Assembly: GCA_964551545.1 (NCBI GenBank)
Contig: CAZKCT010000005.1
Coordinates: 456 to 64,455 of the forward strand
Source of the DNA: an uncultured Piscirickettsiaceae bacterium
GTDB lineage: Bacteria; Pseudomonadota; Gammaproteobacteria; GCF-002020875
DNA length: 64,000 nt
Direction of reading: 5' to 3'
In this document: positions 61,514 through 62,532 of the stretch, piece by piece
How positions within the stretch are numbered: the first letter of the stretch is position 1
How the letters are laid out: every line of letters starts with the position of its first letter
Position numbers and translations under genes: made by a program
The notes under the pieces: generated by a model
What the model saw: only the letters and a program-made list of their open reading frames with translations
Databases searched by the model: none
Told to the model about the DNA's origin: nothing

Positions 61514-61966
61514 TTACCCATTTCTCGCTTCCCACTGCTGATAGGTGGCGTCAGACCAAAGACTCTGAATCCAGGCAAGCGTGGCATCAATCTGCTGCGC
61601 ATCAAGCACCGATTTGAACGGTGGCATCACTCCACCCAGCGCAATGCCCCCTTCACGGACAGTCCGTCTCAACTGCGACATAGGATGGTGCCAGGCGTGC
61701 GCACTACCATTCAGTGGAGGTGGAGGGTAGTGACCATCTGCTCCCGGCGTACGCCACGCCGGCGTCGATGCCGCCTCCACGCCATGACAAGCAGAACAGT
61801 GGCCCTGATAGAGCGGTGCACCTTGTGCCACTTGCTGTTCAGTATACCAACGCCCCTCAACTGTATCTTCAATCTGCAGCGCCTGGTAAAACAGGAAAGC
61901 ACCCCCCAACATCACCAACAGACTCACCACAACAATCCCCCACCGCTTCATCTCTTTTCTCCGCAA
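61514..61966 (-). CDS. Membrane-anchored monoheme c-type cytochrome (paralog of 17326-17802)
   Basis: CSACHG heme site; shares YPPPPLNGSAHAWHHP and LAWIQ..WSD blocks with the copA-adjacent cytochrome. Confidence 0.7.
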   Translation of the reverse strand: MRRKEMKRWGIVVVSLLVMLGGAFLFYQALQIEDTVEGRWYTEQQVAQGAPLYQGHCSACHGVEAASTPAWRTPGADGHYPPPPLNGSAHAWHHPMSQLRRTVREGGIALGGVMPPFKSVLDAQQIDATLAWIQSLWSDATYQQWEARNG

Positions 61967-61971
61967 TACCC

Positions 61972-62014
61972 GTTACAATGGCTTTCATTGAAATTATTTT
62001 CCCGTCCATTGTAT
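61972..62014. promoter_or_regulatory. Inverted repeat TTACAATGG-25nt-CCATTGTAT in divergent promoter of cyt c / DUF411
   Basis: Half-site CCATTGTAA resembles the GAATGTAAC / TTGTAAC half-sites at 19661-19676 and 22944-22960. Confidence 0.35.
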
Positions 62015-62067
62015 GGGACTCTGATCATAGATTGTTGATTAAAAATAGCATTTACCCAGATTATTGG

Positions 62068-62532
62068 AGACACACCATGAATACCATTCCTCGACGGAGT
62101 CATCTGATCACCGGCACTCTCTTCTTGCTACTCAGCGGCCTCTGGACGACCAGCCATGCTGCCCCCATCATTGAGGTTTTCAAATCTCCAACGTGTGGAT
62201 GCTGCAAGGGGTGGGTAGAGCACTTGCAAGAGAACGGGCTTAATGTAAAGACCTATGACACCGCAAACGTCGCCCCCTTCAAGAAACGACTTGGTGTGCC
62301 ACAGCAACTCACTAGCTGCCATACTGCCGTTATCGATGGGTATGTGATCGAAGGCCACGTCCCCGCTCGTGATATCTACCGCCTACTCAAAGAGCGCCCT
62401 GAGGTGATTGGCCTGACGGTACCGGGCATGCCAGTCGGATCCCCTGGCATGGAGATGGGTAAGCGAAAAGATCCCTATGCTGTGCTCACTTTTGACAAAC
62501 AGGGCAGCACGACACCGTTTAGCCAATACTGA
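62068..62532 (+). CDS. DUF411 (CopG-like) periplasmic copper-binding protein, second copy
   Basis: Signal peptide, CGCC motif, strong similarity to 14660-15124 product (…SPTCGCC..W..HL.E.G..V...D.........LGVP..L.SCHTA…PGMP.GSPGME); ATG at 62068 (track ORF extends upstream without support). Confidence 0.65.
   Translation, partial: RHTMNTIPRRSHLITGTLFLLLSGLWTTSHAAPIIEVFKSPTCGCCKGWVEHLQENGLNVKTYDTANVAPFKKRLGVPQQLTSCHTAVIDGYVIEGHVPARDIYRLLKERPEVIGLTVPGMPVGSPGMEMGKRKDPYAVLTFDKQGSTTPFSQY

Follow-up and report, generated by a model that had tools for sequence, protein, structure and literature searches.

The region between positions 61514 and 62532 of the window (the whole stretch of 64,000 nucleotides analysed here, from an uncultured Piscirickettsiaceae bacterium) is, as judged by sequence comparison, the second copy in that window of the CopJ-CopG module already named in copper-resistance islands. 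Here, a gene for a CopJ-type cytochrome c (cytX_B) is paired with a divergently oriented gene for a DUF411/CopG protein (CopG_B). A specific functional link between the cytochrome and CopG is well supported by gene context, and this context suggests that the cytochrome may pass electrons to or from CopG. The best explanation we can offer, which we put at about even odds (a probability of roughly 0.5), is that in this second module the haem of the cytochrome would exchange electrons with the copper-thiolate centre of CopG. We refer to this region as locus 2 and to the copA-containing region elsewhere in the window as locus 1.

Gene layout of the two loci

The genes and other features of locus 2 and its flanks are as follows.

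58932–61379, minus strand: MMPL/RND-type transporter (Pfam PF03176), downstream of cytX_B across a 134-nt gap
61514–61951, minus strand: cytX_B, CopJ-type monohaem class I cytochrome c of 145 aa (open reading frame, Pfam, GGAG upstream, public gene calls)
61970–62017, no strand assigned: inverted repeat CCGTTACAATGG-N24-CCATTGTATGGG in the divergent intergenic region
62068–62532, plus strand: CopG_B, DUF411/CopG protein of 154 aa, a predicted periplasmic copper protein (PF04214, PDB 6WIS/6WJE)
62574–62993, plus strand: DedA/VTT-domain membrane protein (Pfam PF09335), 42 nt 3' of CopG_B

A preliminary description of this DNA had placed a cytochrome gene at 61514–61966 and a DUF411 gene at 62068–62532, and both open reading frames are present there. 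For the cytochrome, the ATG at 61951 is a likelier start than the TTG at 61966, with GGAG 7 nt upstream and public gene calls on identical contigs giving 145 aa. The ATG of CopG_B also has GGAG 7 nt upstream, and the intergenic region, counted from the cytX_B ATG, is 116 nt long. Within the lineage the DedA/VTT gene keeps its place beside CopG_B, the DUF411-VTT order recurring in loci L081–L085 and L096–L098. The MMPL/RND transporter is genomic context for cytX_B, with no demonstrated role in the pair; a close homologue lies after CopA in one relative (L004).

The inverted repeat between the two genes is a candidate operator or a candidate pair of -10-like TACAAT elements. Both of its arms are kept in an 84%-identical relative (L085), in which the spacer varies in sequence and length, and the arm pattern has three matches across the window, two of them being this repeat itself. 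It is absent from more distant CopG_B orthologues, and we therefore assign no regulator to it. Between 61952 and 62067 we found no sigma-70 consensus promoter and no CopR-like direct repeat, and established no recognisable CueR or CopR box.

Locus 1 and its neighbours comprise the following genes, all on the minus strand.

14660–15124, minus strand: CopG_A, paralogous DUF411/CopG protein, the final gene of the locus 1 operon, overlapping the copA stop codon
15117–17363, minus strand: copA, Cu(I)-exporting P1B-type ATPase (NCBIfam CopA/TIGR01511)
17326–17802, minus strand: cytX_A, paralogous CopJ-type cytochrome c of 158 aa (open reading frame, alignment to cytX_B, Pfam)
17817–18215 and 18219–18635, minus strand: cyt2 and cyt3, tandem paralogous monohaem cytochromes (Pfam)
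18639–19064, minus strand: DUF4399 protein (Pfam PF14347)
19140–19508, minus strand: Met-rich periplasmic protein without a Pfam family
20300–21715, minus strand: histidine kinase with a Met/His-rich sensor segment (Pfam, open reading frame)
21719–22444, minus strand: OmpR-type regulator (Pfam, open reading frame)
22450–22650, minus strand: small HMA protein (Pfam, open reading frame)

The preliminary description had each of two loci pairing this cytochrome with DUF411. At locus 1 the two genes do share a locus, but they are not directly adjacent: the order is cytochrome, copA, DUF411. The start of copA is uncertain, its open reading frame reaching 17411 and overlapping the end of cytX_A. The first genes of this operon are those for the Met-rich and DUF4399 proteins, in an order identical to that in loci L001–L005. 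The cyt2 and cyt3 proteins, 52% identical to each other, carry the signature PSHH(G/A)D...HHWxFGDMP, and a cytochrome of this type adjoins the CopJ-type cytochrome in 21 of the 80 loci of the genome sample described below. The two-component system with the small HMA protein (20300–22650) is likely to be the copper-responsive regulator of locus 1; the same block of HMA, regulator and kinase genes adjoins CopG_B orthologues in relatives.

Identity of the cytochrome and of CopG

Both cytochromes match PF13442/PF00034 above the curated cut-offs (PF13442: 46 bits for cytX_B and 52.7 bits for the other copy, cut-off 27; PF00034: 40 bits for cytX_B). Their CxxCH haem-attachment motifs read CSACH and CAGCH in the window copies, and cytX_B additionally carries YPPPPLNGSAHAWHH and GGVMPPF. 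The AF2 model of cytX_B (pLDDT 91.9) has a class I cytochrome c fold with a helix at residues 2–25, and this hydrophobic N-terminal helix is probably a membrane anchor. Across 84 sequences, the C, C and H of CxxCH and the M and P of MPxF are invariant, including Met109 and P110 of cytX_B. The Met of GGxMPxF aligns with the GVMP/GQMP (GxMP) segment of CcoP haem domains, whose Met we take to be the axial haem ligand there, and Met109 is likely to be the distal (sixth) haem ligand of cytX_B. The preliminary description had offered the HAWHH block as a distal haem ligand or a Cu site; given the CcoP alignment and the family invariants we rejected the first suggestion in favour of the invariant Met, and a Cu site at HxWHH is possible. 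Taken together, these features describe cytX_B as a class I cytochrome c with a single haem, tethered to the membrane and with His/Met ligation predicted.

A family signature, PxPP…HxWHH…MPxF, is invariant across a large subfamily and in a six-sequence alignment of window, Cupriavidus, Dinoroseobacter and Arcobacter proteins and fused forms; the alpha/beta set keeps it as well, with one WKH variant. The nearest folds of cytX_B are cytochromes cL, c552, c6 and CcoP domains. The C-terminal haem domain of CcoP, c552 and cL have the fold and CxxCH...GxMP in common with the window cytochromes but lack the HxWHH signature. CcoP further differs in its genes and architecture, the window cytochromes having one haem domain and no ccoNOQ neighbours. 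We also rejected membership in CcoP (TIGR00782): the window cytochromes score 24.2 and 31.8 bits against a cut-off of 179.95 and have a single haem motif, and no cco genes lie near either copy.

[quoted passage not shown] The PF04214 scores are 98.3 bits for CopG_B and 93.2 bits for CopG_A (cut-off 27), and phmmer matched CopG_B to PDB 6WIS/6WJE with an E-value of 1.3e-38 (6wis_A, residues 35–154). The motifs of CopG_B are CxCC (C40-G-C42-C43), SCHT and GMPVGSPGMEMG; its CGCC at residues 40–43 can be aligned with the 6WIS chain, as can GMPVGSPGMEMG, its Met-containing C-terminal segment. By sequence, then, both DUF411 proteins are members of the CopG family, with Cu4 binding and a role in copper tolerance predicted. 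In the P. aeruginosa CopG of 6WIS/6WJE we see the same DUF411 domain, CxCC and Met-containing C-terminal segment as in the window proteins, whereas the window has two paralogues, each near a CopJ-type cytochrome. We know of no partner cytochrome described for P. aeruginosa CopG, nor of any report of a CopJ from the work on CopG in P. aeruginosa and V. cholerae. DUF411 is also far commoner than the CopJ-type cytochrome (at least 7994 matches against about 1060), and for these two reasons CopG probably does not need CopJ. No DUF411-cytochrome fusions occurred among the 120 closest CopG_B homologues. The solved CopG has a thioredoxin fold with CxCC and Met motifs and a cysteine-bridged Cu4 cluster, and CopG has been proposed to be a Cu(I)/Cu(II) interconverter or oxidoreductase that is important anaerobically (review PMC7558416).

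The closest named system is copF-copG-copJ(-copI) of C. metallidurans CH34 pMOL30, which joins a P1B ATPase, a DUF411/CopG protein and a c-type cytochrome as the window does. The names come from PMC12029693, in which copG is thioredoxin-like and copJ a 'putative cytochrome c'; copFGJ and copGJ are transcription units, and nearly all of the cop cluster is induced by Cu2+ (PMC12029693, PMC9045368, PMC7563307). On the C. metallidurans plasmid the cytochrome c gene follows those for DUF411 and a P-type ATPase and lies between DUF411 and copD, as noted for copJ. CopG_B is 47% identical to C. metallidurans CopG (E 4e-34), and the full-length alignment of cytX_B with CopJ spans 156 columns at 33% identity (E 1e-19). 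CopJ and the window cytochromes have PxPP..HxWHH..MPxF in common, but the latter belong to a gamma-proteobacterial subfamily with YPPPPLNG[ST]AHxWHH in place of MPAPPHDxxGHTWHH. Gene order differs too: locus 1 runs cytochrome-copA-copG, locus 2 is divergent and without an ATPase, and the CopI cupredoxin of the C. metallidurans unit is absent here. By gene context, locus 1 therefore stands beside copG and a copper P-type ATPase, and locus 2 beside copG only. Our literature search found no biochemical characterisation of CopJ.

The name CopJ is ambiguous. The R. gelatinosus 'CopJ' is a different protein, of 14 kDa with a CxxC motif and not described as a haem protein, and was set aside. Identity of the cytochrome or of a DsbC-fused form (see below) with V. 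cholerae Cot (VCA0261-0260), which a review describes as thioredoxin-like and metal-binding, was not supported, and no Vibrio proteins were among the matches listed for the cytochrome and its fused forms. In V. parahaemolyticus, a 'cytochrome c' (VP_RS20030) belongs to the CueR regulon and is 40-fold down in a cueR mutant.

Gene neighbourhood in other organisms and history of the two copies

We examined two independent samples of the cytochrome family, 80 genome loci from the gamma-type subfamily and 80 metagenome loci from the alpha/beta-type subfamily. Genes were found by phmmer on all stop-to-stop open reading frames, fused forms were counted in, and adjacency was defined as a DUF411/CopG gene no more than 400 nt away on the same strand as the cytochrome. 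The preliminary description had argued for a functional partnership over chance adjacency and had proposed co-occurrence in other genomes as the check, and here its expectation was borne out. CopG was adjacent in 20 of the 80 genome loci, all co-directional (10 upstream, 10 downstream), and in 22 of the 80 metagenome loci; of the 39 metagenome loci whose flanking sequence reached 1 kb or more in each direction, 13 had an adjacent CopG. Pooled, adjacency occurs in 42 of 160 loci of other organisms, about a quarter, in both gene orders and across Gamma-, Alpha-, Beta- and Epsilonproteobacteria. The idea that two paralogous families came together twice in one genome by accident is compatible with the divergent, lineage-specific arrangement of locus 2, but this recurrence in four proteobacterial classes, with a binomial tail of about 1e-36 to 3e-36 at an assumed background rate of 0.002, effectively refutes it.

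In both samples CopG is the commonest copper-related immediate neighbour, above the P-type ATPase and multicopper oxidase. Where CopG lies within 4 kb it is nearly always the immediate neighbour (19 of 22 in genomes, 21 of 24 in metagenomes), against 2 of 12 and 6 of 22 for multicopper oxidase and 8 of 18 and 4 of 19 for the P1B ATPase. Trees of the cytochrome and of CopG recover the same clades, each gene order being conserved within clades, and their distance matrices correlate (r = 0.80, Mantel p about 2e-4), a correlation confounded by shared species phylogeny. About 70–75% of family members in both samples have no adjacent CopG. More broadly, one or more copper genes lie within 5 kb of the cytochrome in 47 of the 80 genome loci. 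CopA, multicopper oxidase, CueR and CopB are frequent neighbours, and on an Azospirillum plasmid the cytochrome gene stands immediately before that of a P-type ATPase and DUF411 is missing. One homologue is found after ccmABCDEF.

Thioredoxin-fold genes also recur beside the cytochrome. In 22 of the 80 members the CopJ-type cytochrome carries, as a C-terminal fusion, a DsbC-like thioredoxin module (DsbC_N plus thioredoxin, CPYC), the thioredoxin motif of fused relatives being CPYC, CGYC or CPFC. These relatives have the DsbC_N and thioredoxin domains in common with DsbC/DsbG isomerases, a fusion that is absent from the window and of which we know no prior description. On a D. shibae plasmid the gene immediately after the cytochrome encodes a DsbA-family protein, without clear homology to the DsbC part of the fusions outside the CPYC region, and TlpA, SCO, CcdA and DsbD genes occur beside the cytochrome on Burkholderia, Thalassobaculum and Sinorhizobium plasmids and in metagenome loci.

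Within the window, tblastn found two cytochromes of this type, two DUF411 proteins and no more. The cytochromes (61514–61966, minus strand; 17326–17802, minus strand) are identical at 69 of 118 positions (58%, E 2e-56), and the blocks YPPPPLNG(S/T)AHAWHHP and LAWIQ..WSD that had been pointed out earlier occur in both. The proposed paralogy of the DUF411 proteins (62068–62532, plus strand; 14660–15124, minus strand) likewise held up, with 63 of 112 positions identical (56%, E 1e-49) and CxCC and GMPVGSPGMEMG kept in both. Each copy is about as close to homologues elsewhere (about 50–66%) as to its own paralogue, which points to family conservation and not to recent duplication.

The two loci had also been presented as independent evidence for the partnership, and the comparison with relatives makes them less than clean in that respect. 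In the nearest relatives the CopG_B orthologue stands opposite a different, class II Met-rich c-type cytochrome; on one relative's contig the CopG_B orthologue and the MMPL-CopA-cytochrome block lie within a single island; and the divergent adjacency of a CopJ-type cytochrome with CopG_B is found elsewhere only in the 84%-identical relative. Given the arrangement in relatives and the shared island, the adjacency at locus 2 looks like a lineage-specific rearrangement.

How the cytochrome and CopG may be linked

In the proposed mechanism, the secreted, thioredoxin-fold CopG_B would hold a Cu4 cluster through its CxCC and Met motifs, and the N-terminal anchor of cytX_B would keep the cytochrome on the periplasmic side of the inner membrane. 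Electron exchange between the haem and the copper-thiolate centre would then link the respiratory chain to oxidation of the periplasmic Cu(I) that CopA delivers, and CopG could cycle with no need for O2 or a multicopper oxidase; electrons could equally well flow the other way and re-reduce the CopG centre. The invariant HxWHH might serve for docking or for handling copper, on a surface close to the haem edge, as distinct from acting as a sixth haem ligand. The proposed Cu(I)/Cu(II) interconversion by CopG and its anaerobic role call for an electron partner other than O2. Also in favour is the class II c-type cytochrome opposite the nearest CopG_B orthologues, which shows CopG next to a cytochrome also in places without CopJ. 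Against it, the genes of locus 2 are divergent and not co-transcribed. A cytochrome c with the usual high potential would be a poor thiol reductant, which makes the direction of electron flow ambiguous. We infer that direction, as well as physical contact between the partners and the role of HxWHH. The outcome would match that of the CueO/CutO/PcoA multicopper oxidases, oxidation of CopA-exported periplasmic Cu(I), a likeness of functional analogy and not of membership: those enzymes have an unrelated fold and chemistry and depend on O2, whereas a haem-CopG relay would feed the respiratory chain.

A rather unlikely alternative is that the two genes share an island without direct partnership, the cytochrome itself binding Cu at HxWHH/PxPP with redox through its own haem, CopG acting separately, and adjacency reflecting co-regulation and joint horizontal transfer. 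It would suit the invariance of HxWHH in both subfamilies, the majority of members that lack CopG yet lie among copper genes, the range of those copper neighbours, and the Azospirillum arrangement. It sits poorly with the preservation of both gene orders within clades and with CopG being an immediate neighbour far more often than island genes of similar local frequency, and the Cu binding at HxWHH on which it depends is only putative.

Alternatively, the cytochrome could serve periplasmic thiol-redox maintenance under copper stress, partnering Dsb, TlpA or Sco-type thioredoxin-fold proteins of which CopG would be one among several. Copper harms the assembly of periplasmic c-type cytochromes (PMC4600104), which speaks for this reading, as do the DsbC fusions, the DsbA-family gene in D. 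shibae and the TlpA, SCO, CcdA and DsbD neighbours described above. We nonetheless consider it unlikely, since both copies in the window lack flanking Dsb or TlpA genes and the commonest copper-related immediate neighbour is CopG; it also overlaps with electron exchange between the cytochrome and CopG, as CopG, too, has a thioredoxin fold and a CxCC motif.

Very unlikely, in our judgement, is a spare respiratory electron carrier that replaces damaged or copper-dependent carriers under copper stress and performs no chemistry on copper or CopG. The generic class I fold with its respiratory nearest neighbours, a membrane tether like that of respiratory carriers and the homologue after ccmABCDEF would all fit such a role, but it accounts for neither the invariant His-rich signature nor the specific adjacency to CopG, and scores against models of CcoP and other respiratory cytochromes fall far under their cut-offs.

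For the window alone, the result is chiefly one of annotation, namely that the fragments of one copper island carry two modules of the CopG/CopJ type. Its wider interest is that CopG occurs widely in islands for copper and silver resistance, clinical ones included, and that the CopJ-type cytochrome is an obvious and directly testable candidate for its electron acceptor or donor when O2 is absent. Tentatively, and on balance doubtfully, CopJ-type cytochromes with HxWHH may more generally be dedicated haem partners of periplasmic thioredoxin-fold proteins with Cys motifs, in which case the DsbC-fused and the DsbA- or TlpA-adjacent forms would represent a haem-thiol redox relay, of a kind not described before, that operates under copper stress. 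If electron exchange between the cytochrome and CopG is real, it would supply the missing electron partner for the Cu4 cluster, and the two proteins would together act as a cuprous oxidase, or a reductase, that needs no O2 and is connected to the respiratory chain. Confirmation would tie periplasmic copper detoxification to that chain by a route independent of multicopper oxidases.

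Two cytochrome-CopG loci and their history

The window encodes exactly two copies each of a c-type cytochrome and a DUF411 protein (tblastn), and the open reading frames named in the preliminary description were confirmed in both loci. The features discussed here are as follows.

14660-15124 (-), DUF411 protein CopG_A, locus 1
15117-17363 (-), copA, locus 1
17326-17802 (-), cytochrome cytX_A, locus 1
17817-18635 (-), tandem monohaem cytochromes cyt2 and cyt3, locus 1
19661-19676, perfect direct repeat TGTAAC-N4-TGTAAC, 10-bp period
19748-20059 (+), 103-aa ORF
58932-61379 (-), MMPL/RND-type transporter
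61514-61951 (-), cytochrome cytX_B, locus 2
61970-61981 and 62006-62017, inverted-repeat arms, each with TACAAT
62068-62532 (+), DUF411 protein CopG_B, locus 2
63009-63980, chemoreceptor gene

The proposed paralogy was borne out by pairwise alignment. The cytochromes, with cytX_B taken as originally called (61514-61966), are identical at 69/118 residues (58%, E = 2e-56) and share the blocks YPPPPLNG(S/T)AHAWHHP and LAWIQ..WSD; the DUF411 proteins are identical at 63/112 (56%, E = 1e-49). Both cytochromes match PF13442/PF00034 and both DUF411 proteins PF04214, all above Pfam cut-offs. The location of cytX_B stands but its start does not: ATG 61951, with GGAG 7 nt upstream, is more likely, giving 145 aa, and is also used in the gene calls of identical public contigs. 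Likewise, the described pairing of cytochrome and DUF411 genes holds at locus 2, but at locus 1 they are not direct neighbours, as copA sits between them. The copA ORF overlaps the 3' end of cytX_A by 86 nt (17326-17411), and a start at its next in-frame ATG (17363) would still leave 38 nt shared. Which start copA uses is uncertain, and its translation may be coupled to that of cytX_A.

The divergent arrangement of the cytochrome with CopG-DedA, including its flanks, is retained in an 84%-identical relative. The CopG_B orthologues that come next in similarity (62-65% identity) retain CopG-DedA-S24-LexA-RdgC-UvrB synteny, and in these CopG lies opposite a 140-aa Met-rich protein ending CVACHAGYRIR, probably a class II cytochrome, followed by HMA, response regulator and histidine kinase genes. 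This secreted protein, MPEMMQQHMMGNMRDHM, lies divergent from CopG at 4433-4855(-) in L096 and 4462-4884(-) in L097 and L098, loci from other genomes; its gene was not found in the 64-kb window, and in L086 (7576-8001) it is directly upstream of a CopJ-type cytochrome. CopG_B orthologues thus appear to retain some adjoining c-type cytochrome despite a switch of family. One relative's contig also carries MMPL-CopA-cytochrome-cyt2-cyt3-DUF4399 about 13 kb away. Together with the relatives' synteny, this arrangement suggests that loci 1 and 2 derive from a single ancestral copper island that was broken up, and that the cytochrome-CopG adjacency at locus 2 is a rearrangement specific to the window's lineage. 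The two loci, previously put forward as independent evidence of partnership, carry less weight as such.

An IS66-family element (TnpB, DDE transposase) lies just beyond the window end beside locus 2, about 3 kb past the chemoreceptor gene in public contigs L081-L083, where the locus-2 cytochrome is 100% identical; its presence fits regional rearrangement. Downstream of cytX_B come the MMPL/RND-type transporter gene and genes for DUF1329 and DUF1302 proteins (compare L081 6573-11259). A close homologue of the MMPL gene lies 3' of CopA in the relative L004 (13494-15986), so the cluster travels with the copper island.

In the locus-2 intergenic region, the inverted-repeat arms are kept in the close relative with a different spacer; no consensus promoter, CueR-type or CopR-type site was established there. 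The TGTAAC repeat, in the divergent promoter region 5' of the locus-1 operon, adjoins a two-component system of the OmpR type, with a Met/His-rich sensor segment in its kinase, and is a candidate response-regulator box. In V. parahaemolyticus an unlinked 'cytochrome c' gene, VP_RS20030, is, with copA and copG, among the strongest CueR dependents (-40-fold in a cueR mutant; PMC12341060).

Identity of the two proteins

CopG_B aligns with the P. aeruginosa CopG of known structure (6WIS/6WJE) at E = 1e-38 and keeps its CxCC motif (C40-G-C42-C43) and GMPxGSPGME segment; the DUF411 proteins of the window are CopG. CopG has been reviewed as a thioredoxin-like periplasmic protein with a Cu4 cluster, with a proposed role in Cu(I) oxidation and importance in anaerobic conditions (PMC7558416).

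CytX_B is a monohaem class I cytochrome c from a family of >1000 members (protein collection search). Invariant across the homologue alignment are RWY, CxxCH, W, G-x-Y-PPPPL-x-G-x-AH-x-WHH, G-x-MP-x-F and a W..Y..W tail. HAWHH had been suggested as a distal haem ligand; the invariant Met is the expected sixth ligand instead, because it lines up with GxMP in the haem domains of CcoP. An AlphaFold2 model (pLDDT 91.9) has a class I fold and an N-terminal helix (residues 2-25). Its closest solved structures are cytochromes cL, c552 and c6 at TM of only about 0.5, with none from within the subfamily. In many homologues a lipobox replaces the helix, and membrane tethering therefore appears general.

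Cytochrome homologues occur in 208-275 plasmid records (tblastn), mainly from Roseobacter-group bacteria, rhizobia, Cupriavidus and Burkholderia. The Cupriavidus metallidurans match, a 'cytochrome c' gene 3' of a P-type ATPase and DUF411 and 5' of copD/copC, occupies the copJ position in copF-copG-copJ-copI. There copG has been called 'thioredoxin-like' and copJ a 'putative cytochrome c' (PMC12029693); copFGJ and copGJ are transcription units of a cop cluster that is almost completely Cu2+-induced (PMC9045368, PMC7563307). Identity to these C. metallidurans proteins is 33% for cytX_B with CopJ (E = 1e-19) and 47% for CopG_B with CopG, and the signature PxPP..HxWHH..MPxF is common to CopJ and the window cytochromes. 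Homology, gene position and signature make the window pair a gamma-proteobacterial version of the known CopG-CopJ kind. (Rubrivivax 'CopJ' is an unrelated CxxC protein, a name ambiguity only.) We have high confidence in both protein identities and in copper-island membership.

Adjacency of CopG and CopJ-type cytochromes

A scan of a single genome for each species gave 465 YPPPPLNG[ST] loci, of which we analysed the best 80, calling neighbours by phmmer on all ORFs. CopG lay no more than 5 kb from the cytochrome in 22/80; in 20/80 it was co-directional and at most 400 nt away, split evenly between upstream (10) and downstream (10). A second sample, 80 metagenome loci drawn with alpha/beta-type CopJ patterns and thus an independent subfamily and collection, had a co-directional adjoining CopG in 22 (12 and 10 for the two gene orders). 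Of the 39 loci flanked by 1 kb or more on each side, 13 had CopG adjoining. As immediate neighbour, CopG exceeded other copper-related families.

Families near the cytochrome: loci with an immediate same-strand neighbour / within 4 kb
CopG: genomes 19 / 22; metagenomes 21 / 24
Multicopper oxidase: genomes 2 / 12; metagenomes 6 / 22
P1B ATPase: genomes 8 / 18; metagenomes 4 / 19

Trees built from the adjoining cytochrome and CopG sequences agree in their clades, with gene order fixed per clade, and their distance matrices correlate (r = 0.80, Mantel p about 2e-4), a value confounded by species phylogeny; this is consistent with inheritance as a unit. Annotated plasmids of Cupriavidus, Pseudosulfitobacter and Thalassobaculum carry the pairing, and on Arcobacter and Burkholderia plasmids CopG lies 2.5-3 kb from the cytochrome.

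Other genes recur as well. The tandem cytochromes of locus 1, 52% identical and lying between DUF4399 and cytX_A, bear a PSHH(G/A)D...HHWxFGDMP signature whose His-rich HHW block resembles HxWHH of cytX; this type immediately adjoins the CopJ-type cytochrome in 21/80 loci. The 103-aa ORF, divergent from the locus-1 operon and ending PAPCCNKPPR, has no Pfam match; homologues sharing its CCNKPP C-terminus occur no more than 5 kb from the cytochrome in 13/80 loci, and the ORF may encode a small protein that binds metal.

Possible roles of the cytochrome

In the best supported proposal, the anchored haem protein would exchange electrons with the copper-thiolate centre of CopG, which would connect CopA-exported Cu(I) to the respiratory chain; we give this whole statement a probability of about 0.5. 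The functional partnership argued for earlier gains from adjacency that recurs in both samples and is specific to CopG, but most members of the cytochrome family lack an adjoining CopG. DUF411 is also far more abundant than the cytochrome, and no DUF411-cytochrome fusion occurs among the closest 120 CopG_B homologues. A cytochrome that handles copper autonomously is a possible, if less probable, alternative.

Other thioredoxin-fold proteins also accompany the cytochrome. In 22/80 genome loci its C-terminus is fused to a DsbC_N dimerisation domain and a thioredoxin domain (CPYC, CGYC or CPFC; about 367 aa), for example in L010 (9998-11107), L012, L016, L019, L024, L025, L041 and L065. More than 100 close full-length homologues of the fusion are among the matches listed, and a cyt2-type cytochrome is usually 5' of the fused gene. 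To our knowledge, a fusion of cytochrome c with DsbC has not been described, and it may be more novel than the CopJ-CopG pair itself. CopG adjacency is somewhat rarer in fused forms (2/22 vs 20/58, Fisher p = 0.026). DsbA-family, TlpA, SCO, CcdA or DsbD genes are often beside the cytochrome in plasmid and metagenome loci. Roseobacter plasmids wire the cytochrome differently: three other cytochrome c genes, a multicopper oxidase, the CopJ-type cytochrome and a DsbA-family protein, with a P-type ATPase and cueR after the cytochrome/DsbA region and no DUF411 in D. shibae plasmid pDSHI01 (L090 3165-8156). The common denominator of these neighbours is a periplasmic thioredoxin-fold protein with a Cys motif, CopG being the most frequent. 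We consider a role as thiol-redox partner unlikely next to electron exchange with CopG, and a spare respiratory carrier more doubtful still. Chance adjacency is hardly credible: with the background rate set generously at 0.002, the binomial tail for 20/80 is about 3e-36.

The observation of paralogous cytochrome-DUF411 pairs thus stands, while its interpretation is only partly supported. The adjacency to CopG, counted and found specific in two samples drawn independently, offers a useful clue to the redox partner that CopG is missing.
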